From a bacterium (GTDB taxonomy: Bacteria; Patescibacteriota; UBA1384; VFKW01): 64,000 bases of DNA. The stretch spans positions 169,506-233,505 of the forward strand of contig JAUSIS010000006.1 in the NCBI GenBank assembly GCA_030647355.1, read 5' to 3'. The position numbers were made by a program, and so were the translations under genes. The first letter of the stretch is position 1; each line of letters opens with the position of its first letter. Under the pieces are notes generated by a model. The model was given only the letters and a program-made list of their open reading frames with translations. It did not search any database and was not told where the DNA came from. Of the stretch, positions 642-54,386 are shown piece after piece.

Positions 642-1553
642 CTACATGTAGTAGTTGAACATGTACGCATACTGTAGAAAATGTCCTTTGTGGTTGACGA
701 CAGGATGATTCCAGCATTTCCCTAGGCCATCTCTCAGAATATTACCGACGTTGATGCAGTCGTCTTGAGAGTAACCTTGAGAAATGACATCACCCCGTGA
801 ATCGATAAGGAAACAAGAGTGATGGTTGCCCAATTCGGAATAATCCTGAATAGTTATGAATGGCTCATCGCCCGACATCCTTTTGAGCTCTTGAAGCTGC
901 TTCAGATAAGTCTTCCTTTCCTCATCCGAAAGAAGAAGCTCCGTGTTCCCGTAAGCTTTACCTTGGGGCGCAATCAGGATATAGAACAGCCTGTCTACTC
1001 CCAAAGCTTTTGCTAGCTGGTAGATATAGTCTATCTTATCCAGATTGTCCTTTCTAACCAGGTAATTGATCCGCAATGGAACACCTGCGTCTCGGTATAG
1101 CTTCATTGACTCCACAGCCCTCCTATAGGCACCCTCGCCACGGGACCTGTCGTGAACTTCTTCGTCCCCATCCAAGGAAATCAACAGCAACGTTTTGGTT
1201 TCAAGGATTGTTTGGGCGATCTTTTGATTCCATATAGAGCCATTAGAAGTGACAAGGGTTTCGATGCCTCTGTCGGAAGCGTAGTTTAATATGTCACAGA
1301 TATCTGGACGAAGAAACGGCTCCCCCCCGGTGAAATCGATTCTCACCAGATTAGCCTCAGCCAAAACATCGACGATCGACTTGATGTCGCCCAAGGATAA
1401 TTCAGTAGAATCTTGCTCTCCGCTAAGACAGAAATCGCAATGGTAGTTACACCGTCGCGTAACCTGCCAGCAGAGTGATAACGGATTCGATAGCGTGACT
1501 TTCAGATTAGCCAATCGCTGCTCATGTCCTTCTTTGTACTCGACGATTCTCAT
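642..1553 (-). CDS. radical SAM enzyme with a C-terminal Cys-rich SPASM/twitch-like extension
   Basis: N-terminal CNYHCDFC (CxxxCxxC), a GGEP-like motif (FTGGEPFL), and C-terminal HHSCF...DDCINVG...KCWNH cysteines. A 9-bp gap separates it from the upstream methyltransferase gene. Confidence 0.7.
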   Translation of the reverse strand: MRIVEYKEGHEQRLANLKVTLSNPLSLCWQVTRRCNYHCDFCLSGEQDSTELSLGDIKSIVDVLAEANLVRIDFTGGEPFLRPDICDILNYASDRGIETLVTSNGSIWNQKIAQTILETKTLLLISLDGDEEVHDRSRGEGAYRRAVESMKLYRDAGVPLRINYLVRKDNLDKIDYIYQLAKALGVDRLFYILIAPQGKAYGNTELLLSDEERKTYLKQLQELKRMSGDEPFITIQDYSELGNHHSCFLIDSRGDVISQGYSQDDCINVGNILRDGLGKCWNHPVVNHKGHFLQYAYMFNYYM

Positions 1554-1562
1554 CTCTTATCC

Positions 1563-2270
1563 CTACCCTTTCTGATGCTGCAAAACCGAAGCTGTCATTT
1601 CCAAGACTGACACATTGTGCTGGATGTCTAGCGAAGGCAACTTCACGTTCCACTTGCCTGGAAAAGCGTTGTAGAATACCCCTTTCCTCGGCAATCTGAT
1701 AACAGTACCGACCACTGTCCTCGAAAAGAAGCCTAGGTCTGCATATGTACTCCTCATCCCCTCTGTGAATTCATTGATACCAAGCAGTTCACAAAACTCA
1801 TCGTTGCCGGCGTTTTCGATTGCAAGTATCATCCCGTCTGCTCGTAGGATGTCACCGAGCTTTCGAAAAACAATGTCGAACGAATCTCTCATAGACGTCA
1901 GACTCCACCCAGCGAAGATAAGGTCAACACTGCTGGGTAGTATGATCAAGTCTCTGGCATCTGTGAGCATGAATTCCACATTGTTGGCACCGAGATTCTT
2001 GTCGCGATTGATTTGCATCAAGCTTGTGCTTCTTTCTACGACGTAGAGCTTTGAGCACTCTCTCGATAAGAAAGATGTGAATTTCCCACTTCCAGCGCCG
2101 ACTTCAAGAATCGTTTTGCCCTTGAAATCGTACTGGCTGGATAAATACCCATCAATTATACCGAAAGCGTCCTGGCACCTACTGAATTCCTCGTAGGCAA
2201 CGCCCTGATTATAGTCAAATCGCCACAGGTCCTTGTTCATCTTAGTACCACCTTGTGATTGGTTTATCAA
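1563..2270 (-). CDS. class I SAM-dependent methyltransferase
   Basis: LEVGAGSGKFT glycine-rich motif I. AAGGTGG RBS 7 nt upstream of the ATG at 2270; an alternative start at 2240 is possible. Confidence 0.65.
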   Translation of the reverse strand: MINQSQGGTKMNKDLWRFDYNQGVAYEEFSRCQDAFGIIDGYLSSQYDFKGKTILEVGAGSGKFTSFLSRECSKLYVVERSTSLMQINRDKNLGANNVEFMLTDARDLIILPSSVDLIFAGWSLTSMRDSFDIVFRKLGDILRADGMILAIENAGNDEFCELLGINEFTEGMRSTYADLGFFSRTVVGTVIRLPRKGVFYNAFPGKWNVKLPSLDIQHNVSVLEMTASVLQHQKG

Positions 2271-2540
2271 TGTACCTCTATGTAAAAAGGGGTCAACCTT
2301 TTTAGATTAGCTGAATATTATCATGCATTAGACCAAAAAACAAGCCTTTGCCCGTATATTAAAAGAAATACCAGATAGTATTATTTGCTAGCGGGCCAAA
2401 GGAAGACTACTTGATTTGTTTCTAAATTTATGGTATTATCATGGCAACTAAACGGAGGGTCGCCCTGCGATCTTTTTGTTTGTAGGTTCCTTTACAACAG
2501 ATAGAATGTATCTCACACTAGAAAAGAGGAGGTGGCAACG

Positions 2541-3257
2541 GTGCAGTATGACGATAATGTCCTTGCAATAAGAGCCGCTGTAGCGAGATTTGAAGTTGAA
2601 CAAGGCGTTGATGTCAATGTCTTGTTTACGCAATTACTCCTACAGCATATCACCGACGGGTGCTCGTTGGTTGATATCGGCACTGGAAATGGTTTTGTTT
2701 TATCGCAAGTCTTGCAGCAAAGTGATAAACAGTTTCAACTATTCGGAGTAGATAACTCTCAGAGTATGGCATCTATTGCTCGGAAGAATCTTGTAGGAAA
2801 TGCTACTATCGTCGAAGCTGACGCTAGTGAGCTACCGTTTGATAACTGTAGCTTTGATATCGTATCTGCCAGAAATGTAACACAGATCGATGTTGTCGAG
2901 ATCTACCGTATATTGAAAGAAGGGGGGGTATTTGTCTTTCGTGAATATGGCTGCGGTAAGGGTATGCTGGAGATTGCCGATCTCTTTCGTGGCAGGATCA
3001 TTCGGCAGAGAGATCCTGATTATTATGTAGAAAGATTGCTAGACGCTGGTTTCCATATTGTGAAATTTGACCAATATGAGATCAAGCGTAAATACCGATC
3101 TGCACAAGAACTGGTTTCTATCGTCAAGAGCTACCCATTCGTTGTGGGTTTTTCCAGCCAGGACGAGAAGCTCATCTTAGAGAAGTTCGCCCAAAACGCT
3201 ACGATCACATCTGACCCGTTCATTCTGGTCACTACCAAACCGAAAGGATGTGCGTGA
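2541..3257 (+). CDS. class I SAM-dependent methyltransferase (Methyltransf_11/25-like)
   Basis: VDIGTGNGF motif I. AGGAGG RBS at 2526-2531 favours the GTG at 2541 over the tabulated 2532 start. The stop overlaps the next gene. Confidence 0.6.
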   Translation: MQYDDNVLAIRAAVARFEVEQGVDVNVLFTQLLLQHITDGCSLVDIGTGNGFVLSQVLQQSDKQFQLFGVDNSQSMASIARKNLVGNATIVEADASELPFDNCSFDIVSARNVTQIDVVEIYRILKEGGVFVFREYGCGKGMLEIADLFRGRIIRQRDPDYYVERLLDAGFHIVKFDQYEIKRKYRSAQELVSIVKSYPFVVGFSSQDEKLILEKFAQNATITSDPFILVTTKPKGCA

Positions 3258-3735
3258 AATGAGGAAAGTTGAATTGCTGTTCGATCTCATCAGGTCACCC
3301 TACGATATGGCACACATCGTCCAGATTGCCAAGTCGATCGACTGCATCGTCTATACTTCCGGCAGAAACTCGCTTTCTTTTGATATCCCCAAGGTGATAA
3401 CCAAGGTAAGATCTTGGAACATCAAGGGTGATTTCAAGGCGATTCATTATGAAACGTTTGAAGAAGCGATCCATGATCTGAGGGCAGAAGGTAAATACCT
3501 GGTGGGAACATCAGGTGAAGTCGACAAGCTTTTCTACGACATAGTTCTGCCGGATGGTAAGGATATAGTCGTAGTATTCGGCAACGAAACCTCCGGTCTG
3601 ACTGAAGCGAAGCAACAGATGTTGGACGATATGGTTAAGTTGCCAATGGACAAGTCCAAGGTTGATTTCCTGACCCTACCGGTGGCTGTCTCAGCCATCG
3701 CTTATGAGCTGTATCGACAGTACCACTGTCCGTAG
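3250..3735 (+). CDS. SPOUT-family RNA 2'-O-methyltransferase, TrmL-like
   Basis: C-terminal VVVFGNETSGL ... KLPM ... LTLPVAVSAIAYELYRQ matches the TrmL/SpoU motifs (FGxExxGL, IPM, SLNxSxAxxIxxYE). Protein is ~160 aa. Overlaps the upstream gene by 8 nt. Confidence 0.55.
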   Translation: MREMRKVELLFDLIRSPYDMAHIVQIAKSIDCIVYTSGRNSLSFDIPKVITKVRSWNIKGDFKAIHYETFEEAIHDLRAEGKYLVGTSGEVDKLFYDIVLPDGKDIVVVFGNETSGLTEAKQQMLDDMVKLPMDKSKVDFLTLPVAVSAIAYELYRQYHCP

Positions 3736-3757
3736 AGGAAGAAAGGTGGCGAGCATT

Positions 3758-4831
3758 ATGCTCAAGGATAAGATAGTTTATGTCGTCACCACGGGCGCAA
3801 CTAAGGCGAAAGGTGTTGGCATACTGCTCAGCATGCTAAAGTCAGAGGGTGCACAGTGCATCGTAATGCCAACCGACGCCAGCTATTCGATGCTTGATCT
3901 CGATTCAATCCGGGGCGAATGGGTCAAGTTCAATGGTAATGAATTCGGCGCCCGTCAAGACGAAATACCAGAAGAAGACCTAGTTGTTGTTGCGCCGTGC
4001 ACCTTCAATACGCTTTCCAAGATTGCGACGGGAATAGCTGATAACTATCCATTATCAGTGATCCATGCGGCGATCGGTAGCGGCAAGCCAGTGATTTTGG
4101 CCCTGGCTATGAATTACTGGTATTTCCAGCATCCTATAACTCCTGTAAACATCAACCGCGTAAACGCTTTTGGCAGGGTAAGGGTAATATGGCCTGAGTC
4201 GATCTATTCCGACGATGGTGTCCTCGAGAAAGTGACGATGGCGCCGTGGGAAAAGATTGTTGACACGATCTGCCATACCTACTGCAAGACACGATACAGC
4301 GAGACAAGAAAAGAACAAGAAACATCTGAGATTATCGATGATCACTTTCCAGAGTTCCATAAAACTGGCTCGAAGATGCAGCAAGACCATTTCACGAATG
4401 GTTCCGCTGGATTCATTGCCAAGAGAATTAAGGAAGGTGTACTTGTCACGTCTTCAGGGTCTTGTGTCGGAAATCTGTCAAGATCGGATCTCACGATTAT
4501 TCAGAACTGGTCCAATCAGGTTATAACCTGGTCAGGTGAGGCAAAGCCGTCGTCCGAGACGCCTTTGATATTGGAGATATTCGACAAATTCCCTGATGTC
4601 AAAGTAATCATACACGGACACTGTAGAAGCATCACTTACAGTCCTCTTATGAATAAGTATCACAGCAGTGAGTATCTCAAATACGGCGAATGGAAGGAGT
4701 TATACAAGATCCAGCCCGTTCTTCAGAAGTACAACGGGGGCATCATGAAATTGCATGGCGAGCTGATCCTTGCCAGGGATTTTGATGAAGCCATGGAGAG
4801 GTATCTGGATATGTATCGCCTAACCTGTTAA
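3758..4831 (+). CDS. two-domain fusion: HFCD/CoaC-like flavoprotein (N-terminal) plus class II aldolase/adducin-like domain (C-terminal)
   Basis: N-terminal APCTFNTLSKIATGIADN and ALAMNYWYF correspond to the HFCD PASANTxxKxAxGxxD and PAMNxxMW motifs. C-terminal PSSETPLILEIF...VIIHGHC corresponds to the class II aldolase PSSE...HTH pattern. GGTGG RBS sits before the ATG at 3758. Confidence 0.6.
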   Translation: MLKDKIVYVVTTGATKAKGVGILLSMLKSEGAQCIVMPTDASYSMLDLDSIRGEWVKFNGNEFGARQDEIPEEDLVVVAPCTFNTLSKIATGIADNYPLSVIHAAIGSGKPVILALAMNYWYFQHPITPVNINRVNAFGRVRVIWPESIYSDDGVLEKVTMAPWEKIVDTICHTYCKTRYSETRKEQETSEIIDDHFPEFHKTGSKMQQDHFTNGSAGFIAKRIKEGVLVTSSGSCVGNLSRSDLTIIQNWSNQVITWSGEAKPSSETPLILEIFDKFPDVKVIIHGHCRSITYSPLMNKYHSSEYLKYGEWKELYKIQPVLQKYNGGIMKLHGELILARDFDEAMERYLDMYRLTC

Positions 4832-5631: not shown

Positions 5632-5667
5632 CCACATGGTTTTTGATTTGAACCCGCAACCAACCCG

Positions 5668-5728
5668 GTAGACTGAATGAATCTTATTTCGAACACCTTG
5701 TGGATTGGCTGAATCAGCTAATGCTTGC
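5668..5728 (+). repeat. 61-bp direct repeat, copy 1 (flanks the SWIM/Fic island)
   Basis: ggtagactgaatgaatcttatttcgaacaccttgtggattggctgaatcagctaatgcttg. About 87% identical to the copy at 7679-7739 in the same orientation. Confidence 0.6.
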
Positions 5729-5805: not shown

Positions 5806-6639
5806 ATGTTTTCATATACTAGAATTATTTTAGATAATACTGAATTATCGATCTATCAACGAGGCCTGGAATATGTCAACAAAAAGAAAGTGAAGTTAAC
5901 CTCTATCATAAATAATGGCTGCCAAGCAACTGCGAGTGGTTCACGAAATTATGAGATTACTCTAGGTTTCTCCAGGGTTGGCTCACCAAAATATTCCTGC
6001 TCCTGCCCATATTTTAGTGAACACAAAAAAGTGGTTTGTAAACATATTATTGGCACCTCGCTTGCTTGGGATAGATCGCGGAGTGTCCCTGATCCAGATG
6101 AAGAAACTTTGGAAGTACTTTGCATTCCGGAACCGATATTTTCGCACAAGGATATTAATGAAGCGTATAATAATCCGCTAACAGCTAACCTTGATGTTAT
6201 TCGAATCGCCGCTGATGAAAGCGGCTGGTCTAGGCCTCATGCACATTTACCAATAAAGCCACAAGTTTGTAATCATACAACCCTTGAGTTGACCGATATT
6301 AACAAAGGTATTTCAGAACTTCGTGCCTGGGCTAGAAAATATAACTTTGACCCCTATTTTTGCGCTGGCGAAATAATGGCCGGATTCTGTGAGCTCATAA
6401 GGTTCACTAAGTTTAAATTTGATACTTTAAATTTAGATGATAAAATTAAGGCAACAGTATTACTTGCTAATTTTCATCATGAATTAATCATGGAAAAGAT
6501 TGATGACAGCGAAGGCCTGCACGAATTTTCAGAAACTCATCTTTATGATCTAGTTAGCGAGTTAACTAACAATCAGAAGTTGAATCAGACGCAAATAAAA
6601 GCGCTTGAATTAATTAAACATAAAATTGATGATTATTAG
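5806..6639 (+). CDS. SWIM-type zinc-finger domain protein (hypothetical)
   Basis: CSCPYF...CKHI fits the SWIM CxCxnCxH signature. The rest has no other recognisable domain. Confidence 0.5.
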   Translation: MFSYTRIILDNTELSIYQRGLEYVNKKKVKLTSIINNGCQATASGSRNYEITLGFSRVGSPKYSCSCPYFSEHKKVVCKHIIGTSLAWDRSRSVPDPDEETLEVLCIPEPIFSHKDINEAYNNPLTANLDVIRIAADESGWSRPHAHLPIKPQVCNHTTLELTDINKGISELRAWARKYNFDPYFCAGEIMAGFCELIRFTKFKFDTLNLDDKIKATVLLANFHHELIMEKIDDSEGLHEFSETHLYDLVSELTNNQKLNQTQIKALELIKHKIDDY

Positions 6640-6660: not shown

Positions 6661-7548
6661 TCAGGTAATTTTATATTCTGCCCTGATTTTCCAGACGCCT
6701 CGCTCGCGAAAAGCAGGAATCGATTGCCTTAGAGCGGCATTAAAAACTGTCGGAGCTCTTAAATTATTTTTTCGTACATAATCAGATAGATTGATTATTT
6801 CCGATCCTTCGAAATATGTGATTCTTTTATTTAACGATTCGGTTAGAGCCAGAGCCATAACTTTTTCCATCAATTTTGAATTTTTATTAAACTGATAAGC
6901 CTTAAATGCTTCATAATAGTCAGCCTTTTCTTTATCTCTGATAATTATACGGGGGAAGCCAAGTTGTAAGAGTTGAAAATTGGTCAGAACTCGACCAATT
7001 CGGCCGTTGCCATCGCAAAAAGGATGAATTCTCTCAAATTCAAGATGAAATTTAGCGATTTTATCAATAAAATAAGCAATGTGATCACTGGAATAATCAA
7101 TCAAAACATTATCAATTAACTGCTCGACTTTTTCGGGTGCCGACGCAACATGGGTGCCTACTCTAACATACTCGCCGATCCTACGAAAACGTCCGGCTAT
7201 ATTATCATCAATTCCGCCCATCAGCATTTGATGAATAAGCAATATTAGTTCTTTTGAGATTTCATCAGTTTGTGCTTTATCCCTTGTATAGTCAACAACC
7301 CTAGCCAAATTCTTAGCTTCATATACTTCGCGAAGGGTAACATCTCGTGAAAGCTCTTGCTCGAGTAGGATTTTTTCTGTCTCTTTAAGAGTCAATGTTG
7401 AGTTTTCAATCGCGTTGGAGTTATAGACACTTTCCGGCACTTCGGCTTGATCAATAATCGTTAAGAGAGCGTCTTTTCCTTGTTTCAAGACATTATATCT
7501 TGTCTTCAATTCACTTAATTTTTCTTGATAAGGTTTTGATAATGACAT
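6661..7548 (-). CDS. Fic/Doc family protein (class II Fic, putative AMPylase) with N-terminal inhibitory motif
   Basis: Canonical HPFCDGNGRIGR Fic motif. N-terminal SNAIEN fits the (S/T)xxxE(G/N) autoinhibitory helix. GGGGG RBS before the ATG at 7548 (tabulated start is 7590). Confidence 0.75.
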   Translation of the reverse strand: MSLSKPYQEKLSELKTRYNVLKQGKDALLTIIDQAEVPESVYNSNAIENSTLTLKETEKILLEQELSRDVTLREVYEAKNLARVVDYTRDKAQTDEISKELILLIHQMLMGGIDDNIAGRFRRIGEYVRVGTHVASAPEKVEQLIDNVLIDYSSDHIAYFIDKIAKFHLEFERIHPFCDGNGRIGRVLTNFQLLQLGFPRIIIRDKEKADYYEAFKAYQFNKNSKLMEKVMALALTESLNKRITYFEGSEIINLSDYVRKNNLRAPTVFNAALRQSIPAFRERGVWKIRAEYKIT

Positions 7549-7678
7549 AGTTGCCCCCAATTTAATGCAATTTAATTGTATACCATTCACGTTATTTTGT
7601 CAATATAGAGTGAATATGCATGTATATTAACATATATTCACGCTATTTTACTCCGCTCAACTCATTCATAGATGATTG

Positions 7679-7739
7679 GTAGACTGAATGCATCTTATTT
7701 CAAACACCTTGCGGATTAGCTGAATCAGTTAACGGTTGT
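7679..7739 (+). repeat. 61-bp direct repeat, copy 2
   Basis: ggtagactgaatgcatcttatttcaaacaccttgcggattagctgaatcagttaacggttg. Confidence 0.6.
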
Positions 7740-7834: not shown

Positions 7835-10534
7835 TTATTTAGTCAGCACTACACTTATCTGGCTCTGGCTGATATTGCCGGCCGCATCATAGGCCTTGGC
7901 GACAATAGTGTAGGTACCGGCCGAGATGCCCTTGCCTCTGGTATTCCAAGTGTAGGAGTAAGGGGAAGTTGTATCGGTGGCTTTAAGAGAGCCGTTGATG
8001 TAAAACTCGACCTTAGCAACACCGACATTATCGGTGGCATTAGCTGTAATATTGACCTTGGTACCCATTTTAATATTAGCGCCACTTAAGGGCAAAGTAA
8101 TGGAGACTGCGGGAGGAGTGGTATCTGGTGTTCCCCCACCACCGCCACTACCGATGGTATAGAAAGCCCAGCCTCTACCCAGACAATTACCACTGCCGGC
8201 AGCAAAAGGTACCGGGCATGTTGTGAGGGTACTGGTAATAAGCGATGCTCTGACCGCAAATGGATAAACTTTTGCCGAAGCAGATAAGGGTGATGTTAAA
8301 TGTAGTATAGTTGAGCTACTTGTTCCTGAAGCCAGCGATGTCAATGTTTCTTGATCGAAGCCAAAAGACCATCCAATACCCATACCTGAACCGTTCTCCC
8401 ACATCAGACTATAACTTTGGTTGGAACAGTAAGAGTTGCTCGCATTCGTGACCGTAACAGTGTAGGAAACTTCAGCTCCCGCATTAACCGCTGTCGACAT
8501 TGTCGGCGTGATATTAACAACCGGGGTTTGATTTATACAATCAGTCGGCGCTCCGCTCCATACCACATAGGCAGCAGTGGATGTTCCAGCAAGAGCGGTG
8601 TTTGCTTGATGAGAAGCTTTGGCGGTGAAAAAGTAAAAACCTTGTGGAGTACTGGCCGGAGAGGTGACGGAGAGCATGGCGGTGCCTGTTGCCCCCGGCG
8701 GTAAAGTTAAATTGGAAACATTAAATTGAGCCGATAAATTAGGATCTGCTGTGTAGCCGAGATCGTAGGTGGCAGGTTCACAGCCAAGCGTGTCGCTATT
8801 CTTAATACCTATGACATAGTACAGAGTTTTTCCTCCAGTAGTAGTCCCTTGATTACCGCCGGCAATTTGCACCTGGGGAGCAAAACGACCACATACTGCG
8901 GTTGGGTCAATCGTAATGTTAACCGTTGCCTCTTGGTCTGTTACCGAGGTAGTAGTGATTTTTACTCCTGATGATGAATCATTGAATATTTGATCGGGTT
9001 TAAGCGCCCATTGAGTCGGCGTTGCCACTGAAGCGCCGGCACGCAAAAGGTCGGTCATGCTGCCATAGGTGATATCCGGAGCAATCCTTATAAATATTCC
9101 TCCCGGATTAGCAAAAGAGTCAAAGCCATAAGTTTTGCGATACTCCAAATAAAAATATTTTTTCACTACATTCGTAGCCGGGTCTATCTCCTTCGGGATT
9201 CTAATCATCTGGATACCACTTGACGCGTATTCTTGCGGGGCAATTTTATAGGTTCCGCTTTGAGTCACTGTTTGATAATTGGTGGAGGTAATCCAGTCTC
9301 TGAAAGTTTTGTAATAATTGTTGTAGTGATAATAACCGCCGCCCATAATATCATACGGATCGCCATACTCACTCCATTTACAATTATCCCCTATGGGAAC
9401 GGGGTTACTGGCAGTATCGGCGCAAATGAAAGAATTGGCGTGATAAAAACCAAGGTTATGTCCCATCTCGTGAGCAATTGTAGGTGAGTTATAGTAGATG
9501 GGAGTGCTGCCAGATCCGGTATAAGTTGAGTACCAACTGCTTCCACGTACCCCACTCCCCAAGGAGCCCCGCGCACTAAAGAGACATTGGGTGGAGATGT
9601 TGCCAAAAACATACTGAACATTGGTGTAGGCGGCCGGATCAAAACCATCCCTCGCGGCCGCCATCTTGTCTCCGGCACTCCCCCAGATTCCCCACCAATT
9701 ATCCGAAAATGAACAATCGTCATTTCTGTATGATATAGTATACCAGCCGTAAATATCCAAATTCGGATCTTTGATTCCGCTCATAATAGTCTTGCCGAAA
9801 GAAGCTTCCTTCCAAAGATTGTTCACCGAATTTGGATTCAGATAATTAATCTGACGAATATAATCATTGGTAACGGTTTGTGTTTGATCATTTTGGAAAT
9901 TAATCAAGATTACCGCTATTTTGCGCATATCTGTAGGGGTAACGGTCGCTGCAACTTCTTGGGAGTCAACTGCGACAATGTCCTCGCTTCTGGCGACAAT
10001 AATATCCTGAATTTTTATTCCACTTAGTTTCACATTTCTGTTAGCCAACGATGTCGGAGCTTCACCGTCAATAAATATTTCCGGCGCTTCCGGTAGCTTT
10101 CCTAGATAGTAATGCGCTTTACCGACTTTTTCTTGGAAATCATCTTCTATAATAACTTGCAAATTACCTTCGCTCCGAAACCGCTCCTCAACGCTAGGCT
10201 TAATTTCAGCCGGCATCTGGTTGTAGAAATTCAACGGTAGCGCTGAGCTCATAAACTCGCCGGGATTTTCTTTTGCTATCATTGTAAATTTATTTTTGCG
10301 TGATTGGGCAATATCTTTAAGTTCTGCCATATCCTCGATTTTCTTACTTTTCTTATATTTAGAGGCAGCACTTAAAAGCCGGTCATTAAGGTTTTTTACC
10401 ACCACTCGTTCTTCCTGAGTTTTCAGGACATCTGCCTTAAAGAAAAGGTTATTCTTCATTAAAACAATAACTAATCCTGCAGCAGATAGAACTAAGACGA
10501 AAATTAGAATTGATAACAAAGTTCTTTTGGGCAT
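7835..10534 (-). CDS. secreted/membrane-anchored metzincin-type zinc metalloprotease with C-terminal Ig-like domain
   Basis: N-terminal TM/signal anchor. HEMGHNLGFYH matches the metzincin HExxHxxGxxH zinc site. A long Thr/Ser/Gly-rich beta-rich region and a C-terminal Ig-like module (VEFYINGSL...YTWN...GTYTI) follow. AAGGAGGG RBS before the ATG at 10534. Confidence 0.6.
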   Translation of the reverse strand: MPKRTLLSILIFVLVLSAAGLVIVLMKNNLFFKADVLKTQEERVVVKNLNDRLLSAASKYKKSKKIEDMAELKDIAQSRKNKFTMIAKENPGEFMSSALPLNFYNQMPAEIKPSVEERFRSEGNLQVIIEDDFQEKVGKAHYYLGKLPEAPEIFIDGEAPTSLANRNVKLSGIKIQDIIVARSEDIVAVDSQEVAATVTPTDMRKIAVILINFQNDQTQTVTNDYIRQINYLNPNSVNNLWKEASFGKTIMSGIKDPNLDIYGWYTISYRNDDCSFSDNWWGIWGSAGDKMAAARDGFDPAAYTNVQYVFGNISTQCLFSARGSLGSGVRGSSWYSTYTGSGSTPIYYNSPTIAHEMGHNLGFYHANSFICADTASNPVPIGDNCKWSEYGDPYDIMGGGYYHYNNYYKTFRDWITSTNYQTVTQSGTYKIAPQEYASSGIQMIRIPKEIDPATNVVKKYFYLEYRKTYGFDSFANPGGIFIRIAPDITYGSMTDLLRAGASVATPTQWALKPDQIFNDSSSGVKITTTSVTDQEATVNITIDPTAVCGRFAPQVQIAGGNQGTTTGGKTLYYVIGIKNSDTLGCEPATYDLGYTADPNLSAQFNVSNLTLPPGATGTAMLSVTSPASTPQGFYFFTAKASHQANTALAGTSTAAYVVWSGAPTDCINQTPVVNITPTMSTAVNAGAEVSYTVTVTNASNSYCSNQSYSLMWENGSGMGIGWSFGFDQETLTSLASGTSSSTILHLTSPLSASAKVYPFAVRASLITSTLTTCPVPFAAGSGNCLGRGWAFYTIGSGGGGGTPDTTPPAVSITLPLSGANIKMGTKVNITANATDNVGVAKVEFYINGSLKATDTTSPYSYTWNTRGKGISAGTYTIVAKAYDAAGNISQSQISVVLTK

Positions 10535-10584
10535 TTTCCCTCCTTTATTCATATTATCTCAACTATAATAATTATAAATAGCCA

Positions 10585-10986
10585 ATGTGGCGGTGTCAAG
10601 TGTACGTATGGAATCGAATTGTATGTGGGAAACTCACCCAAATGGTCCACTTTGTGGCCGTTTCCCGACCCCTTCCCGGATCCGATTCCAGACTCATATA
10701 TACCAAAATAGAGGAGAAAATAAGAGCACTTCAAATCGCTAAGAATGACGATTTACTTTTGAAATATAATCTTGAGGCGATCACCAAATTTATAAAAAAC
10801 AAGCTTGGTAATCTCACTCAAACTTACATAGATTCAACTCTGGAACAGAAGAGAATCTTGTTGTGTTCGATATACCCCTCAGGATTGCATTGGGGCGAAA
10901 ATGGCTATTCGAACACCCAAATTAGCAAGTTCTACAGGAGTATATTGGGGATACAGACTGATAGCATCCCTTTTGGTAGCGCATAG
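10585..10986 (+). pseudogene. truncated tyrosine-recombinase (integrase)-like N-terminal fragment abutting tRNA-Glu
   Basis: STLEQKRILLCSIYPSGLHWGE resembles the start of the tyrosine recombinase catalytic domain (LLLLLYTGLRxxE), with H in place of the first catalytic R. It is preceded by a SAM-like core-binding stretch. The ORF runs into the tRNA and lacks the rest of the catalytic domain. Confidence 0.35.
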
Positions 10987-11048
10987 GGGAGTCGAACCCC
11001 TCTTTTCAGATTGAAAATCTGACGTCCTAACCGATAGACGAATGCGCC
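10974..11048 (-). tRNA. tRNA-Glu (anticodon UUC), CCA encoded
   Basis: Manual cloverleaf on the minus strand: acceptor GGCGCAT/ATGCGCT (G1-U72), D-arm GTCT/GGAC, anticodon stem TCAGA/TCTGA with loop TTTTCAA (UUC), T-arm AGGGG-TTCGACT-CCCCT, discriminator A + CCA. Confidence 0.8.
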
Positions 11049-11098
11049 TTTATCTCGAGCGTAGTCGAGAGGGTATCATTCTAACGAAAATATTATAT
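11049..11098 (+). repeat. MITE-like ~48-bp repeat, copy A (contains the CTCGA-GCGNAG-TCGAG hairpin core)
   Basis: tttatctcgagcgtagtcgagagggtatcattctaacgaaaatattata. About 88% identical to the copy at 12402-12455. Begins immediately at the 5' end of tRNA-Glu. Confidence 0.55.
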
Positions 11099-11233
11099 CG
11101 TAAATATGACAAATAATCAAGCTAGCTCAGGGTAATTCGCATTACCCTTCCTTTACAAAATGACTAATCGGTACTATAATTATGCAACATTCAAACGCCG
11201 CAAATTTACATCTACGAAAGGGGAAAATTATCC

Positions 11234-12286
11234 ATGCAACGACCGGATAGCAAGACTATTAGTATAGAGATGCCTTGCGATATGCACACCCACTTGCGCG
11301 AGGGAGAACTCCAGAACCGAATAGTCCCGCACTTTGCTTGGCTTGACGCCGTCGTCGCCATGCTCAACTACAAGGACCCCCTCGACCTGGATCAGATTCT
11401 CACCGAGCGTGCTCGGATCGAGGAATTGATTCACCAGGCAGGTGGCCATGCCGAGCTGCTCATCGCACCATTAATGAATGAGGGGACGAGCGCTGACGAC
11501 ATTGATGCTTTCGCAGCCAACGGCATCAAGATCGTCAAAGTGATGCTCAAGGGCGTTACAACCAATTCGCACCTCGGCGTCAATCGGATCCGAGACATGT
11601 ACCCGATCTTCGCCCGCATGGAGGAACTGGGAATGATCGCCAGTTTTCATGGCGAGCTTCCCAATGTACCACACCGGTGGGCAGAGCAAGCCTTCTTACC
11701 GACCTATGAGATCTTGGCACTCAAATTCCCGCGTCTCAAGATTGTCGCCGAGCATATCTCGACACGGGAGGGTATTGAGTTGATCAAATCTCTTCCCGAA
11801 AATGTGGTAGCCACCTTGACGGCCTCGCACATGATGATTACTGGACGACAAGTCTTCAAGTCTGAAAGCGCCGAAGAAGTGCTATTCCCTAACAGGTTCT
11901 TCAGACCGGTCGCCAAGGAACACGAAGACATGATTGCCATTCAGCAAGCCGCTATGTCCGGAAATCCCAAGTTCATCTTCGGATCCGACAGTGCTCCGCA
12001 CACGCCAGAAAAGAAGCAGCTCCCCAACCCTGCTGCCGGTGCATTCTTTCCACCAGAACTAGCAATTCCGGCAATTGCGGAGGCCTTCGTGAACCTGAAT
12101 AAACTCGATCGTCTCGATGCCTTTCTTTCCGGCAACGCCCAGCGCTTCTACGGTCTCACGCCGAGCAAGCGCCAGCTTACACTTAAGTATGGCGAGTGGA
12201 CGACGCCTGAATACATCGAGGGCATAGTCCCGCTTCTGTGTGTCTATCCGATGTACTGGAGAATTGACGATAACGGCACCGACTAA
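11234..12286 (+). CDS. pyrC: dihydroorotase-like amidohydrolase (class II DHOase-like)
   Basis: N-terminal MPCDMHTHLREGE fits the DxHxHLR metal-binding start of class II dihydroorotases. Length 350 aa. GC about 53% against a ~40% background. Confidence 0.55.
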   Translation: MQRPDSKTISIEMPCDMHTHLREGELQNRIVPHFAWLDAVVAMLNYKDPLDLDQILTERARIEELIHQAGGHAELLIAPLMNEGTSADDIDAFAANGIKIVKVMLKGVTTNSHLGVNRIRDMYPIFARMEELGMIASFHGELPNVPHRWAEQAFLPTYEILALKFPRLKIVAEHISTREGIELIKSLPENVVATLTASHMMITGRQVFKSESAEEVLFPNRFFRPVAKEHEDMIAIQQAAMSGNPKFIFGSDSAPHTPEKKQLPNPAAGAFFPPELAIPAIAEAFVNLNKLDRLDAFLSGNAQRFYGLTPSKRQLTLKYGEWTTPEYIEGIVPLLCVYPMYWRIDDNGTD

Positions 12287-12325
12287 CATCTGTTCAAAGG
12301 GCGTTTAGACAATACCCAAATACTT

Positions 12326-12356
12326 CCCAGGTCATCACACCTGGGATTTTCTTTTT
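12326..12356 (+). terminator. rho-independent terminator
   Basis: cccaggt-catcac-acctggg hairpin followed by attttcttttt. Confidence 0.5.
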
Positions 12357-12377
12357 ATAGTTGATAGTTTAGCCAAT

Positions 12378-12455
12378 GAATTTATCTCGAGCGGAGTCAA
12401 GAGCTTATCTCGAGCGAAGTCGAGAGATTATCATTCCAACGAAGATATAATAACA
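12378..12455 (+). repeat. MITE-like repeat, copy B (core unit tandemly duplicated)
   Basis: tttatctcgagcggagtcaagagc + ttatctcgagcgaagtcgagagattatcattccaacgaagatataata. Confidence 0.55.
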
Positions 12456-12542
12456 TAAAAAGCAATTATCTTCGAGTTACCCCCCTACCTTACTAATCGA
12501 AAAAGAGACCATTGTCTCTTTTTCGTAAATCCCAAAATAATT

Positions 12543-13406
12543 TTAGTCGTTTGATCGTCCGGGTGCATTACTACTATTACCGCTGCTAGAACTTGAATTA
12601 GCATCCGTGCTACTGGTTACGCTTTGCGCTCCTTCAGTCTCTTGTTCTGTTACCTCTACTTCTTCAAATGCAACCACTATGCGAGCTGCGGTCAAAACAC
12701 TATCCTTATAAATCCCCGAAACATGTACTTTATCGCCTACACCAATATCGGCTAAAGTAATCTGGCCGTCACCTTCCTCGATTATTGTATTAGCCGCTGT
12801 CTTGATAGTTACCGTTGACCCCTTAATTGAGGAAATCAATTTGTTAGCCGATTTGATCGCTACCGTTAATTCGCCCGTTCCGACCGCTGCTACCGTTCCG
12901 TTTAATTCGAATTTTGTTTGATTGAGTACAGTCTTGGCTTCTTCTTTTTGTACTTCAACTTTGGTCCCGGTCAGGATACTGTCGCTAATTGTACCTCCGA
13001 TTTGCACTTTTGCGCCAATTGGAATATCAGCTAAAGTAGGATCTGTTTTACCTTTGTAGACGACTCTGGCGTCGGCAGCCAATTTAATAGCTGTCTCGCT
13101 ATCTTTTAATGTTTTTACCGAATTGGTAGAACTTTTAATTTTAACTGTAATAGTTGACTCGGCTGCATCTATCGCCGTTACCGTTCCGTTTAATTCGAAC
13201 TTACTTTTACCTAGTGCCTGTCCGTTATCGGTTCCCTCTGATTCTTCCGAATCTAAAGCCTGCTGGTTTGACTGCCCGACTAGTACTTTATTTATATCGT
13301 TCTTATATTTTACTCCTGCGGTTGTTCCAAATGTTGCCGCCAACAAAACGATCAATACCGTCAAAAGTGGTGCCATCCCCCTTGAGTACTTATTGCGTGA
13401 GAACAT
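12543..13406 (-). CDS. secreted protein with two tandem ~95-aa repeats and a Ser-rich tail (hypothetical)
   Basis: Signal/TM sequence MAPLLTVLIVLLAATFG. Internal repeats KFELNGTVTAIDAAESTITVKIKS / KFELNGTVAAVGTGELTVAIKS. AGGAGG RBS 4 nt before the ATG at 13406 (tabulated start is 13451). Confidence 0.45.
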   Translation of the reverse strand: MFSRNKYSRGMAPLLTVLIVLLAATFGTTAGVKYKNDINKVLVGQSNQQALDSEESEGTDNGQALGKSKFELNGTVTAIDAAESTITVKIKSSTNSVKTLKDSETAIKLAADARVVYKGKTDPTLADIPIGAKVQIGGTISDSILTGTKVEVQKEEAKTVLNQTKFELNGTVAAVGTGELTVAIKSANKLISSIKGSTVTIKTAANTIIEEGDGQITLADIGVGDKVHVSGIYKDSVLTAARIVVAFEEVEVTEQETEGAQSVTSSTDANSSSSSGNSSNAPGRSND

Positions 13407-13507
13407 AAAACCTCCTAATATGATTACAATACTATTGTAGAGCTTTGACATAATCTGTCAATAGGTTATATCCTGAGCAATTGAATATATACATTGAATT
13501 ATATTTG

Positions 13508-13579
13508 AGGGCCCAGTGGGATTCGAACCCACGACACGAGGATTAAGAGTCCTCTGCTCTACCACTGAGCTATAGGCCC
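13508..13579 (-). tRNA. tRNA-Lys (anticodon CUU)
   Basis: Manual fold: acceptor GGGCCTA/TGGGCCC, D-arm GCTC-AGTGGTA-GAGC, anticodon stem GAGGA/TCCTC with loop CTCTTAA, T-arm GTGGG-TTCGAAT-CCCAC. CCA is not encoded. Confidence 0.8.
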
Positions 13580-13686
13580 ATATCTTAAATACATCATATA
13601 TAATAACCTAAAATTAATCAAAAATCAACCCTAATAACCAGTGAAGATCATTAGTTTAAATAATCAAAATAGCGCCCACCGTTAGG

Positions 13687-14637
13687 TTAGGCGCTTATGA
13701 TCTCTAATGTTCGGTCTCGCAGATCTCTGCGGATGTAGTAGCAGGGCAGAAATGGGTTACGAAGAAATATTGAGCCGAAACTAACTGCACCCACCCCCAG
13801 CGTGCGTACTTTGGCTATATCCTCGTATTCCCATACACCCGCCCCAATGACCGGGATCAATCCAATCTCAACTATGTCATGAATGAACGGCCAGTTGATG
13901 TGTTGCGCCGCTTTGCCGGAAACACCGCCTCCGCCATGGTGTGCTAACGGGCTCACTTTATCAGGAAAGCAGATCGCCCAAGGAACCGTATTGATCGTAA
14001 TTGCTTCCACGATTCTATGCACAGTCATGACTATTCTCTCAAGCAGTGGCCAAGAAGCAGCCGAAAGCTTAAGGATAACCGGCTTGCTACTTTCTCGACG
14101 AATGATTTCGCACATCTCCTGTAGTCGCCCGACAGTCATCGGTACGCTATGCTGTACATTGGGGCAATAAGGGTCAATCTCGATTGCCACAATCGGCAGA
14201 TCTCTGCATCGCCTTGCCATCTGCGCCAATTTTCGAAAATCGTCAGAGAAAAAGTTAAGCACCAGAGCATACAGCTTTGGATTATAACTCTTCTCTATAT
14301 CCTCGGCAACCACCCAAAAGCCCGGGTTTGCCCATCCATGCGCATTGACTGTTCCGCCGGGTAAAAATCGCAGAGTATCTCTGGGCTTATACCATCGATA
14401 GTTTCCTAAACGCCCAGGAGAAGTAGTAGTCTTACCGAAGACCGTCATCATTGCCCGGTCGAGTGGCTTTTCCCAGTGGAGCAACTTATCAGCCAAATTT
14501 CTCCGGCTGAAATCAGGGATAGACAGATAGAGCAATATCCGCTCCCACGGCCACGCCTCGCCCCAATAGCCCAAAGCGCCAGCCGAGCACGCATACTCAA
14601 TCTCGTGTCCGTTCGACAGCCGGATCAAATCATTCAC
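13687..14637 (-). CDS. dihydroorotate dehydrogenase-like flavoprotein (class 1 DHODH TIM-barrel family)
   Basis: AIEIDPYCPNV (NxSCPN-like), HGGGGVSGKA (GGLSGxP-like) and IPVIGAGVWEYEDIAKVRTLGVGAVSFGS (C-terminal FMN-binding strand). GC about 50%. Confidence 0.5.
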   Translation of the reverse strand: MNDLIRLSNGHEIEYACSAGALGYWGEAWPWERILLYLSIPDFSRRNLADKLLHWEKPLDRAMMTVFGKTTTSPGRLGNYRWYKPRDTLRFLPGGTVNAHGWANPGFWVVAEDIEKSYNPKLYALVLNFFSDDFRKLAQMARRCRDLPIVAIEIDPYCPNVQHSVPMTVGRLQEMCEIIRRESSKPVILKLSAASWPLLERIVMTVHRIVEAITINTVPWAICFPDKVSPLAHHGGGGVSGKAAQHINWPFIHDIVEIGLIPVIGAGVWEYEDIAKVRTLGVGAVSFGSIFLRNPFLPCYYIRRDLRDRTLEIISA

Positions 14638-14770
14638 CTCGATTCTTCAAGAACTATTCTGGCGGTATCTTATCACAAAAAAACCAAATTTCCAAAAACG
14701 AAAATCCCACATTAGACAACAAAGTCCTCATCATGTATGCTAAAATAAGTAAATATTTGCGGAGGGAATT

Positions 14771-15796
14771 TTGTTTGGACAAGAGCTAATTGATGAAATT
14801 CGAAAATCAGGACTAACGGGCAGAAGCGGCTCCGGCTTCAATACAGCCGACAAATGGCACGCCGTCCTTAATGCCAATGCTGAAAAAAAATACGTCATAG
14901 CCAATGGCGCCGAGGGAGAACCGGATACCCACAAAGACTACTACCTTCTCTCGCATTATCCCCAAGAAATTATCAAAGGGATTATTCTGGCTATGCATAC
15001 AGTCGGTGCAATGGAAGGCTTTTTGTATCTGAAAGCAAGTTATTTCGATCGCCTACAAAGCAAACTCAGACACTTGTTAAGGGGGCTTCCCATCAAATTA
15101 GTTGTAGAAAATCCAGGCGGATATCGATGCGGAGAAGAAACAATCGTCATCCAGGTAATCGAGGGCAAGCGTGCTGAACCTCAATTCAAACCGCCTTATC
15201 CAACCCAAAAAGGACTCTGGGGATATCCTACTTTGATAGATAATGTTGAAACCATCTATACCGTGAAATTAATCAACGATGGAAAATATAAAAAAACCCA
15301 TTATTACACAATAAGTGGCCACGTTGAACACCCCGGAACATTTGAAGCACCGGAAAATATTACTGTAGAAAACTTACTCGTTCTCACTGACAATGAGCCG
15401 CAAGAAAAAACTTTTGCCCAAGTTGGCGGAGGTGCCAGCGGTAATATAGTAACCGACAACACTTATTTTTCCTGCAAAATAACTGGAACCGGTTCGGTTT
15501 CTCTCCACCTTCTGGGCGAAGCGCCGGCAAGGTTATTAAAACTCATCAAATTTTACAAAAAAGAATCATGCGGTAAATGTATCCCATGCCGGGAAGGCGC
15601 CTACCGCCTTTATGAATTAATTACAGCACCCAAAATCAACTGGCAGGAAATTGAGGATATTTTAGATACTATGGAAAAAACGAGTTTCTGTGCTCTAGGT
15701 CGTAGCATTGCTTTGCCGGCTCGCGGATTAATTAAATTAGCCGGCGAAGTCAAACAAACTATTACAGAGGAAGAATATGCCAAAAATAACAATTGA
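14771..15796 (+). CDS. NuoF-like NADH-binding Fe-S flavoprotein (hydrogenase beta / HndC-like)
   Basis: GRSGSGFNTADKW (GRGGAGFPTGxKW), ANGAEGEPDTHKD (CNADEGEPGTFKD) and ESCGKCIPCREG (4Fe-4S motif). Confidence 0.7.
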   Translation: MFGQELIDEIRKSGLTGRSGSGFNTADKWHAVLNANAEKKYVIANGAEGEPDTHKDYYLLSHYPQEIIKGIILAMHTVGAMEGFLYLKASYFDRLQSKLRHLLRGLPIKLVVENPGGYRCGEETIVIQVIEGKRAEPQFKPPYPTQKGLWGYPTLIDNVETIYTVKLINDGKYKKTHYYTISGHVEHPGTFEAPENITVENLLVLTDNEPQEKTFAQVGGGASGNIVTDNTYFSCKITGTGSVSLHLLGEAPARLLKLIKFYKKESCGKCIPCREGAYRLYELITAPKINWQEIEDILDTMEKTSFCALGRSIALPARGLIKLAGEVKQTITEEEYAKNNN

Positions 15797-27217: not shown

Positions 27218-27949
27218 TTGGAGAAAATCAAAAGATCGTTCGTTGATGAGCAGATTCGCCTTGCGTTGGAAGCCCTGGGGCGATCACAGGTTCTTCCCAA
27301 ATGGGCACGATGGACACCCAAGATGTGGCAGGAGGCAGTCCGCCGCGGAATGGATCCCTCTGAAATCATCAACTGCGGGCTCGGTTGGGATTTTACCACA
27401 TTCGGTGTATCCGAGAGGATGTTCCCCAAAACGGGTCTGGTTGCTTTCACCTTGAGCAATGGCAACCCGGACAAGGAATATCCACAGGAGTATTGCCAGA
27501 AACTCCTCTGGCTTCAGGAGGGACAATCAATCCCTTGGCACCACCACAAAGACAAGCGCGAGGACATCTACCACATTGCCGGCGGAAGACTGCGGATGCA
27601 GGTCGCAAGACCAAAGAGGATCAGGGAGAAGTTCGAAGCCGATAAAACGGAGAACCTAATCCTAAGTCTAGAGAACGCTCCAAGGGAGTTCGTACCGTGC
27701 GGAGAGTTCTGGGTTGGCAAAGAATGCCCCAGACGAATTCGGCTCGAGCCGGGCATCGGTCACTTGATGACAGGCGGATGTGGCGGCACGCTACTTGGCG
27801 AAGTATCCAGCGTCAACAAGGAGGTTGGTGTAAGGGTTCAGGACAATACGTTCTGGGCTGGCAATCCCCGCTACATTAACATAGTTGCCGATGTCCCGCC
27901 CCGCTATGTGCTTTGCAACGAGTACGCCGAACTACTGAAAGTCGCCTAA
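27218..27949 (+). CDS. cupin-fold sugar isomerase, D-lyxose ketol-isomerase-like
   Basis: IPWHHHKDKREDIYHIAGGRL resembles the D-lyxose isomerase metal site (HxHxxxxxE...GG). AGGAGGG RBS and TTG start. GC about 55%. Confidence 0.45.
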   Translation: MEKIKRSFVDEQIRLALEALGRSQVLPKWARWTPKMWQEAVRRGMDPSEIINCGLGWDFTTFGVSERMFPKTGLVAFTLSNGNPDKEYPQEYCQKLLWLQEGQSIPWHHHKDKREDIYHIAGGRLRMQVARPKRIREKFEADKTENLILSLENAPREFVPCGEFWVGKECPRRIRLEPGIGHLMTGGCGGTLLGEVSSVNKEVGVRVQDNTFWAGNPRYINIVADVPPRYVLCNEYAELLKVA

Positions 27950-51082: not shown

Positions 51083-51089
51083 GAAAAAC

Positions 51090-51118
51090 TTGCGAACCAA
51101 CTAAAAACTTTCTATAAT
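51090..51118 (+). promoter_or_regulatory. sigma70-like promoter (TTGCGA-17-TATAAT)
   Basis: Sequence inspection upstream of cdaA. Confidence 0.5.
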
Positions 51119-51141
51119 ATAGTAAATGCGGAGGGAATAAT

Positions 51142-54358: not shown

Positions 54359-54386
54359 CCCACCTGGGCCGATCTCGTTTATATTT

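Follow-up and report, generated by a model that had tools for sequence, protein, structure and literature searches.

A dihydroorotase gene and a dihydroorotate dehydrogenase-like gene in a Patescibacteria genome as a likely rearranged form of a pyrimidine-synthesis module

Introduction

Dihydroorotase (PyrC) and dihydroorotate dehydrogenase (DHODH, PyrD) belong to well-known enzyme superfamilies, and the pyrimidine pathway is textbook knowledge. Here we consider two genes, one dihydroorotase-like (pyrC) and one DHODH-like (hereafter the DH-like gene), lying between positions 11234 and 14637 of a 64-kb stretch of bacterial DNA (positions 169,506 to 233,505 of contig JAUSIS010000006.1, assembly GCA_030647355.1; the whole stretch is called the window below). 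An earlier sequence-only reading had described both genes as foreign in GC composition, and had suggested either their horizontal acquisition or their being repurposed paralogues of amidohydrolase and triosephosphate isomerase (TIM) barrel type.

The described proteins closest to the first gene product are the class II dihydroorotases of Escherichia coli, Vibrio and Campylobacter (PDB entries 1J79, 5VGM, 3PNU), in which an HxH pair, a carboxylated lysine, two further histidines and an aspartate are the metal ligands; from the E. coli structure we take Arg20, Asn44 and His254 to be the substrate-carboxylate contacts and Thr109-Thr110 to be the lid loop. For the second gene product the nearest described protein is the PyrD subunit of class 1B DHODH, as in Lactococcus lactis DHODB (1EP1, 5UE9), a flavin mononucleotide (FMN) TIM-barrel protein with its catalytic cysteine in an (E)xNxSCPN loop. 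The PyrK subunit, which carries flavin adenine dinucleotide and a 2Fe-2S cluster, is normally encoded next to class 1B pyrD, while the fumarate-dependent class 1A enzymes (L. lactis PyrDA, trypanosomatid enzymes) stem from stand-alone genes. The base is a cysteine in class 1 and a serine in class 2 enzymes, and the orotate- and FMN-binding set of L. lactis DHODA is presumably formed by K43, N67, N127, N132, K164 and N193. The DHODH and dihydroorotase reactions are both reversible, and orotate fermentation is known in Clostridium oroticum.

The Candidate Phyla Radiation (CPR), or Patescibacteria, is generally described as being without nucleotide synthesis, or incomplete in it (PMC7304191, PMC9530719, PMC11974145), and lateral transfer is said to shape its accessory metabolism, CPR-specific clades included (PMC7304191). 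Literature searches on CPR or Patescibacteria together with DHODH, dihydroorotase or pyrD, in full text as well, turned up nothing on the DH-like family and no study connecting CPR with either enzyme.

Results and Discussion

We consider it likely that the two genes encode consecutive enzymes of uridine monophosphate (UMP) synthesis, and that together they represent a rearranged local version of a patescibacterial pyr module with pyrC as an inserted unit. Both open reading frames (ORFs) are intact. PyrC gives a full-length match to the pyrC_dimer model TIGR00856 (224.6 bits), under its equivalog cutoff of 292.95, which is a threshold for automated naming and not a biochemical criterion. It matches the Vibrio and E. 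coli dihydroorotases with E-values of 7.8e-42 (5VGM) and 6.6e-31 (1J79), and is collinear over its full length (about 350 residues) with these two and the Campylobacter enzyme. Residues H18, H20, K102, H139, H174 and D252 align to H16, H18, K102, H139, H177 and D250 of the E. coli and Vibrio proteins, and R22, N45, T109-T110 and H256 to E. coli R20, N44, T109-T110 and H254, the two threonines lying in a VTTNS segment at 108-112. The active-site mapping against E. coli PyrC that the sequence-only reading had called for thus finds every metal ligand and substrate contact kept; PyrC is predicted to be an intact class II dihydroorotase, and we see no reason to doubt the activity that its residues suggest. 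It differs from the described class II enzymes in its distance from all relatives, in its TIGR00856 score and in its long branch. The best non-self homologue among the 5.8 billion proteins searched is 39% identical, the matches are 33-39% identical, and those at the top mix Chloroflexota, Gemmatimonadota, Kiritimatiellia, Latescibacterota and several CPR proteins. NCBI names the window protein 'amidohydrolase family protein'.

The DH-like protein is recognized by Pfam PF01180 (DHO_dh; 38.4 bits, cutoff 27) and reaches 73 bits against NF005574 (cutoff 269) and 55.6 bits against TIGR01037 (cutoff 270); four other members of its family (P0166, P0223, P0237, P0122) also fail the DHODH cutoffs, at 81-97 bits. 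An AlphaFold2 model built with the family alignment (predicted local distance difference test score, pLDDT, 89.1; predicted template-modelling score, pTM, 0.88) has only class 1A and 1B DHODHs as its 49 top PDB matches, with the rat class 2 enzyme at rank 50, and its best match has an E-value of 7e-14 and a template-modelling (TM) score of about 0.7. Many class 1A structures are among these top fold matches, and the window protein shares with them the stand-alone gene and the cysteine base, but they match the family profile more weakly (about 41 bits) than does the L. lactis DHODB PyrD subunit, its best match by both profile (94 bits) and sequence, at about 20% identity. K69, N98, N104, C158, N160, K190 and N216 are kept together with a GGGGVSGK segment, and the lysine, asparagine and cysteine residues align to the active-site loop and to the FMN- and orotate-site motifs of DHODB. 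These positions are invariant or nearly so across 74 family members, and C158, which in the segment EIDPYCPNV aligns to the cysteine of DHODB ELNISCPNV, is invariant in all of them. The family as a whole is distinct from class 1B in a G(P/A)(S/G)VW loop where DHODB has GxGG(I/V), in an N-terminal motif (LSNGHxFEY..ASGAL.FDGKGWPWE) and in being without a recurrent adjacent PyrK. By fold, profile and residues, the DH-like protein appears to be a divergent member of a DHODH-fold family closest to the class 1B PyrD subunit.

An exhaustive profile search recovered 264 clusters of this family at 50% identity (E ≤ 1e-30), the window protein forming a cluster of its own; its homologues are about 287 residues long and 38-46% identical to it. 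Among the matches listed, NCBI names six 'hypothetical protein', and 'dihydroorotate dehydrogenase' is the JGI label of twelve, with '(NAD+) catalytic subunit' added for eight. GTDB species genomes yielded 179 stretches with a relative, and for the best 80 of them the taxonomy was counted from the record titles: 47 bear Patescibacteria-type names, 24 are assigned to Delta- or Gammaproteobacteria, Pseudomonadota or Myxococcota, and 9 are called 'bacterium'. Some labels of metagenome-assembled genomes are unreliable, as with the 'Gammaproteobacteria' locus L011, which its place in the tree and its gene neighbours both ally with Uhrbacteria.

Gene neighbourhoods were compared in 79 loci, with rough ORF calls and four genes clustered on each side. 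At least one of pyrC, pyrE and pyrF lies within four genes of the DH-like gene in 32 loci, and a dihydroorotase gene in 21. Class II pyrC stands directly downstream on the same strand in 14 loci (15 with L080, where the ORF had been called on the opposite strand). Four loci have a short class I-like gene immediately upstream, and a full class I gene is found in the remaining three clustered loci and, five genes away, in L021; some of the adjoining CPR PyrCs pass TIGR00856 with 317-327 bits. PyrF is near in 11-13 loci (NF001273, 222 bits, above cutoff), and in 16 loci there is a divergent PyrE-like neighbour of 210-255 residues. Standard annotation may miss the latter because four members, which carry a phosphoribosyl-pyrophosphate-binding motif, score 45-133 bits against the Thermus-type PyrE model TIGR01367 (cutoff 150), and the one representative scanned has no Pfam match. 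A C-terminal CPxC motif was seen in this neighbour in L013 (11650-12360), L003, L046, L085 and others.

The typical order is pyrC-DH-pyrF-pyrE-pheS-pheT, the cluster being found in L013, L034, L085 and L071. In L084 it is DH-pyrC-pyrB, and in four loci (L011, L016, L021, L070) the gene lies beside pyrB-pyrI-pyrC, with carB in three of them, carA in two, and PyrE present in L011, L016 and L070. Twelve loci, mostly with proteobacterial labels, have no pyr neighbours and share instead the context GTPase-GNAT-DH-HNH-RluD-laccase-like; this arrangement, with its HNH endonuclease gene, was noted in L010, L019, L036, L038, L039, L040, L042, L063, L077 and others labelled Deltaproteobacteria, Myxococcota or Pseudomonadota. 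The pyr gene neighbourhoods are strong evidence by association, and given these and the active-site residues the family most likely represents a patescibacterial PyrD, not a repurposed paralogue. The window pair shares with the patescibacterial cluster the DH-like family itself and the proximity of a dihydroorotase gene, and departs from it in the convergent orientation of the genes, in the 1.4 kb between them, where a DUF5666 gene and tRNA-Lys lie, and in the lack of pyrF and pyrE from the 64 kb.

As to the host, the window RpoB is 77-87% identical to six database proteins and about 70% identical to proteins of Berkelbacteria and of the 'Patescibacteria group'. The window carries a pilin-like ORF with an N-terminal methylation motif, pentose-phosphate and glycolysis genes and an [FeFe]-hydrogenase-like gene, and no respiratory-chain or tricarboxylic acid cycle genes in its 64 kb. 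This gene content fits a CPR genome, and the window can be assigned, on RpoB identity and gene content, to a patescibacterial genome related to Berkelbacteria, which makes the earlier guess of a reduced-genome symbiont a reasonable one. The accompanying view that pyrimidine enzymes are unexpected in such a host is not supported, as the DH-like family is mostly patescibacterial (47 of 80 loci) and repeatedly clustered with pyr genes. If the family is patescibacterial PyrD, its presence in a CPR genome is therefore not surprising.

The signs of insertion concern pyrC. Two direct repeat copies (Table 1), identical at 47 of 55 positions, bracket a 1.3-kb unit that comprises exactly one transcription unit, i.e., a promoter, a ribosome-binding site (GGGG, visible ahead of pyrC), pyrC itself and a terminator. 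An extra partial repeat copy is present, 100 shuffles gave no repeat match at three or fewer mismatches, and the stretch from pyrC to copy 2 showed no tRNA remnant (its alignment score of 13 compares with a shuffle mean of 13.3). The distal end of copy 2 resembles the region upstream of tRNA-Lys at 15 of 16 positions. The GC content at third codon positions (GC3) of pyrC exceeds the median of its locus by 25.6 points, which places it among the highest 10% of CPR pyrC offsets. Among the best 120 listed PyrC or DH-like matches none exceeds 46% identity, despite the 77-87% RpoB relatives in the databases. The syntenic relative GCA_040961635.1 (RpoB 78% identical) has no entry among these 120, and its 485-kb contig should reach the tRNA-Glu/pyrC region. 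JGI metagenomes scanned with the NuoF-like neighbour gave only 33-41% relatives, with no syntenic relative or empty site found. In view of the repeats, the gene's own promoter and terminator, its extreme GC3 and the lack of a close orthologue despite such RpoB relatives, we lean slightly towards a gain of pyrC as a stand-alone single-gene unit. The gene would probably have entered self-contained, inserted in the tRNA-Glu leader. The hairpin motif CTCGAGCGNAGTCGAGAG of this leader repeat has four matches in the window against 0.06 expected, and an exact copy of it lies inside uvrB.

Base composition was the ground on which both genes had been called foreign, at 10-13 GC points above the core. 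The 52 window ORFs have a mean GC of 42.6% (standard deviation 4.3) and a median GC3 of 38.2%, and approximately 42% GC can be taken as the lineage baseline because the rpoB locus of GCA_040961635.1 likewise has 42.6%. PyrC, at +10.9 points, falls in the range formerly given, while the DH-like gene, at +7.9, does not reach it. Heterogeneity of composition, named as an observation that could undo the claim, is present within the window: GC3 exceeds 0.5 in 9 of the 52 ORFs, including a lyxose-isomerase-like gene (62.7%), PurM (56.7%) and a block of radical-SAM and methyltransferase genes, and pyrC still ranks first. The window is thus compositionally heterogeneous, and the GC excess of both genes is real and only partly diagnostic, because of these nine ORFs and because pyr genes are GC3-rich across CPR loci.

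The latter point emerges from the family loci. The DH-like GC3 offset from the median of its own locus averages +5.9 points and lies above zero in 83% of the 71 loci (p ~1e-8 by a sign test that ignores phylogenetic non-independence). Mean offsets are +6.9 points for PyrC, +5.8 for PyrE and +11.0 for PyrF, against -3 to +1 for the controls PheS, PheT, RluD, laccase-like, GTPase, GNAT and sigma-like, and +2.2 for the control HNH. The GC3 of the DH-like gene tracks that of the host (r 0.82, slope 0.79), with the largest offset in AT-rich genomes, and the window gene, at +15.4 points, is in the top 14% of its family. Pyr genes throughout the CPR thus share a moderately raised GC3, possibly caused by codon selection or recurrent exchange, and the excess of the DH-like gene would largely reflect this family-wide trait. 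Since a GC3 above that of adjoining genes is the rule for pyr genes in CPR loci, GC content taken by itself is a weak indicator of transfer: both genes are compositionally unusual, as first noticed, which says little about a foreign origin of the DH-like gene and more for PyrC.

Other high-GC genes of the window (Table 1) were noted besides. They comprise the D-lyxose-isomerase-like gene, an ORF of 180 residues without family match, the radical-SAM block, which also holds a SpoU-methylase gene and a flavoprotein/class II aldolase fusion, and a stand-alone PurM (aminoimidazole ribonucleotide synthetase) gene. The last is the only purine-synthesis gene in the 64 kb and is likewise an isolated high-GC gene of nucleotide synthesis. 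No convincing short direct repeats flank the lyxose isomerase gene, PurM or the 180-residue ORF.

These results bear on the proposal that a bacterium of higher GC, not of the CPR, was the recent source of pyrC and pyrD together, providing a nucleotide-auxotrophic symbiont with a new capability. Both genes do exceed the lineage GC, they lie close to each other beside tRNA genes, no homologue of either exceeds 46% identity despite the close RpoB relatives, and CPR are generally described as being without nucleotide synthesis (PMC7304191, PMC9530719, PMC11974145). The DH-like protein, however, nests in a family dominated by Patescibacteria, which argues against a source outside the radiation, and the NJ (neighbor-joining) tree already suggests a position inside CPR clades; a GC3 excess that follows host GC3 is moreover the norm in this family. 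Repeats bracket pyrC alone, and the pair is convergent and split by a gene of baseline GC and a tRNA, so that it does not form a single cassette. The window ORFs scanned with Pfam (those of at least 120 residues, rpoB and rpoC excepted) showed no integrase or transposase domain, and at 37-46% identity no donor is identifiable. We therefore regard the joint acquisition as unlikely. Horizontal acquisition is plausible for PyrC, with its repeats, extreme GC3 and missing close orthologue, but this evidence does not extend to the pair as a unit; any transfer of the DH-like gene, which has no flanking repeats, was most likely within the radiation, since its relatives are mainly patescibacterial.

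A number of observations weigh against the explanation that we favour, i.e., two consecutive UMP-synthesis enzymes of a rearranged patescibacterial module with an inserted pyrC. Both proteins score under their NCBIfam equivalog cutoffs (224.6 vs. 292.95 for PyrC and 73 vs. 269 for the DH-like protein). In the phylogenetic placement asked for earlier, the DH-like protein has as its NJ sister the protein of locus L049 (56 of 60 bootstraps, 39% identity), while PyrC lies on a long branch without a stable sister group (at best 27 of 100 bootstraps) in a class II tree across which CPR PyrCs are scattered, and it is to be seen, from this tree, as a long-branch orphan. Of all family members the window DH-like protein diverges most (315 bits against a hidden Markov model built without it, vs. 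432-518), and its model contains a low-confidence insertion of about 20 residues. The residue mapping, which found the catalytic cysteine and most lysine and asparagine residues kept, also revealed the substitutions N155D and S157Y in the catalytic loop (EIDPYCPN vs. EINASCPN in the family), D155 being the equivalent of DHODA N127. An aspartate is found there in three other family members; the D/Y combination is common to the window protein and L049 only, which speaks for conservation of this variant and not for decay. No PyrK-like gene stands beside the window pyrD, although one may be encoded elsewhere, and neither PyrK nor any other redox partner is recurrent among the clustered neighbours of the 79 loci or the 25 commonest Pfam families of the further neighbours. 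The pair could moreover be an isolated pathway fragment, since no pyrB, pyrE, pyrF or carAB was found in the 64 kb by profile and tblastn searches or by Pfam on the ORFs, as had been noticed before for the first three genes. Regarding the insertion, the repeat copies are only 85% identical, and copy 2, which also resembles the tRNA-Lys promoter, could for this reason be an independent orphan tRNA promoter and not a target duplication. The duplicated part is the tRNA leader and not the tRNA 3' end, which is atypical for an islet at a tRNA locus, and the window ORFs scanned contain no integrase.

The low scores and the altered loop also speak for repurposed paralogues, such as a pair resembling dihydropyrimidine dehydrogenase and dihydropyrimidinase, which would degrade uracil or thymine, or a flavoprotein serving the NuoF/HydA hydrogenase. 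Weak PreA and Dus matches of the DH-like protein and other family members, and the divergent orientation of its gene with respect to the NuoF-like and HydA-like genes, point the same way. The PreA matches, nevertheless, amount to 19-22 bits compared with 81-97 for DHODH models, PyrC keeps the substrate contacts R22, N45 and H256 and has only dihydroorotases as best matches, the neighbourhoods are those of pyr genes, and the D/Y loop is conserved in L049. Among 132 further genes directly adjoining the DH-like gene, no Pfam family was seen in more than three loci, and neither NuoF nor HydA was among the 25 commonest. The dihydropyrimidine dehydrogenase and dihydropyrimidinase reading was accordingly rejected on substrate-contact residues, model scores and neighbourhoods, and a functional link with NuoF/HydA because it is not conserved in other loci. 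Active-site residues and gene neighbourhoods thus speak against the earlier suggestion of repurposed amidohydrolase and TIM-barrel paralogues, to which we give very little credence.

In the favoured explanation the pair would be a local rearranged form of the pyrC-pyrD(-pyrF-pyrE) module that recurs across Patescibacteria. PyrC, as a zinc amidohydrolase with a carboxylated lysine, would cyclise N-carbamoyl-L-aspartate, from a presumed cellular source, to dihydroorotate, and the DH-like PyrD, as an FMN TIM-barrel enzyme with Cys158 as base, would oxidise the latter to orotate; both the activities and the direction are those predicted for such sequences. PyrD would need no PyrK, and obvious candidates for its electron acceptor are those of class 1A, fumarate or O2. 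Orotate would pass to UMP through PyrE and PyrF, provided that the genome has genes for them outside the window. The opposite direction, from orotate through dihydroorotate to carbamoyl-aspartate, would amount to an orotate fermentation fed by pyrimidine intermediates of a host. Both reactions are reversible, the organism looks fermentative from the adjacent [FeFe]-hydrogenase-like and NuoF-like genes and from a block of pentose-phosphate and glycolysis genes, and pyrE and pyrF are missing from the window. However, related genomes cluster the DH-like family with pyrF, pyrE and carAB-pyrB-pyrI, which is sensible only for biosynthesis, and neither a PyrK-type subunit linked to NADH (reduced nicotinamide adenine dinucleotide) nor an adjacent ureidosuccinase-like gene was found. 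We consider this catabolic use highly improbable.

The features of the region are collected in Table 1. For the DH-like ORF the start is probably TTG 14628 (313 residues) and not GTG 14637, because a GAGGTG Shine-Dalgarno sequence precedes the TTG and, with this start, the N-terminus MIRLSNGH agrees with the MIxLSNGH consensus of the family; the length of 313 residues was also obtained by an independent gene call. The tandem-repeat protein and tRNA-Lys that had been described between the two genes were confirmed, the former as a DUF5666 protein whose gene has an internal 288-nt repeat and a GC equal to the window baseline; it is an intervening gene outside the pyrimidine pathway. The stretch had been called tRNA-rich, which overstates two tRNAs in 64 kb, and an Rfam search of 10400-15000 returned these two only, with no riboswitch or PyrR-type leader.

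Table 1. Position, strand, composition and supporting evidence of the window features discussed in the text.
Feature	Position	Strand	GC; GC3	Evidence or remark
tRNA-Glu(TTC)	10974-11048	-		ARAGORN; Rfam 61.6 bits
Direct repeat copy 1, promoter/leader abutting 5' end of tRNA-Glu	11050-11104			hairpin CTCGAGCGTAGTCGAGAG
Sigma-70-type pyrC promoter (TTTACA, 17-nt spacer, TATAAT)	11152-11180	+		11/12 consensus positions; 54 nt 5' of ATG
pyrC, putative class II (homodimeric, E. coli-type) dihydroorotase, 350 aa	11234-12286	+	53.5%; 63.8%	TIGR00856, PDB matches, residue alignment; GC3 rank 1/52, z 2.7
Intrinsic terminator after pyrC	12325-12356	+		8-bp stem then TTTTCTTTTT; sequence reading
Extra partial repeat copy	12381-12409			
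Direct repeat copy 2, orphan tRNA-type promoter/leader	12405-12459			no tRNA behind
DUF5666 two-repeat protein, 302 aa, N-terminal hydrophobic segment	12543-13451	-	42.1%	Pfam PF18914 37.4 bits
tRNA-Lys(CTT)	13507-13579	-		ARAGORN; Rfam 73.3 bits
pyrD-like (DH-like) gene, putative patescibacterial-type class-1-like DHODH, 316 aa from GTG 14637	13687-14637	-	50.5%; 53.6%	PF01180, family HMM, AlphaFold2 model; GC3 rank 7/52, z 1.5
NuoF-like gene, then [FeFe]-hydrogenase-like gene	from 14771	divergent from DH-like gene		Pfam
Radical-SAM/methyltransferase block	642-4831		~46%	
61-nt direct repeats	5667-5727, 7678-7738			89% identical
Repeat-bracketed segment	5806-7590		~37%	
SWIM zinc-finger ORF	5806-6639	+		
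Fic/DOC ORF	6661-7590	-		
D-lyxose-isomerase-like ORF	27218-27949	+	53.8%; 62.7%	
PurM	32369-33394	-	52.8%; 56.7%	TIGR00878 310 bits, cutoff 236
ORF, 180 aa	36575-37117	+	50.1%	
uvrB	38998-41013			
Exact copy of CTCGAGCGNAGTCGAGAG inside uvrB	40005-40022			
Segment with IF-2 and LysM/M23 peptidase genes	49223-55373			counterpart of L097 5730-9811
CdaA-type diadenylate cyclase gene	51142-51975			
YbbR-domain gene	51972-53192			

Some further observations were made outside the two genes. The segment with the SWIM zinc-finger and Fic/DOC ORFs is bracketed by direct repeats and looks like a second repeat-bracketed insertion. In GCA_040961635.1 (L097 5730-9811) the LysM/M23 peptidase gene directly follows that of IF-2; in the window counterpart the diadenylate cyclase and YbbR-domain genes stand between the two, so that genes of cyclic di-AMP signalling were gained or lost between the window and this close relative. 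In L049 the gene upstream of the DH-like gene (1-501) ends, by eye, with a motif ARFGDPE..., as in PurD (glycinamide ribonucleotide synthetase), suggesting neighbouring genes of nucleotide synthesis there as well.

Conclusions

The two genes are ordinary for their group, GC alone over-calls 'foreign' genes, and pyrC is the only one of the two with independent structural evidence of insertion. What is possibly new is modest: a patescibacterial DHODH subfamily unnamed by curated models and linked with an equally divergent PyrE, a GC3 excess extending over the family, and a repeat-bracketed pyrC insertion at a tRNA leader. A wider and rather doubtful possibility is that the family constitutes a distinct, PyrK-independent DHODH class derived from class 1B, operating with a divergent PyrE in a pyrC-D-F-E module whose genes are still being exchanged among CPR. 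If this were true, the GPSVW loop in place of the DHODB GxGG and the family-specific N-terminus would mark that class, the GC3 excess and repeat-bracketed single-gene insertions such as that of pyrC would reflect exchange among CPR lineages, and standard annotation would partly miss the module, the pyrimidine autonomy of many CPR being consequently underestimated.

Overall, the window and the 79 loci compared with it show a recognizable pyrimidine module that is widespread in CPR and composed of pyrC, a lineage-specific pyrD, pyrF and a divergent pyrE, sometimes with a full carAB-pyrBI set. Several of its parts score under common annotation thresholds, which matters for the metabolic reconstruction of symbiont dependence.

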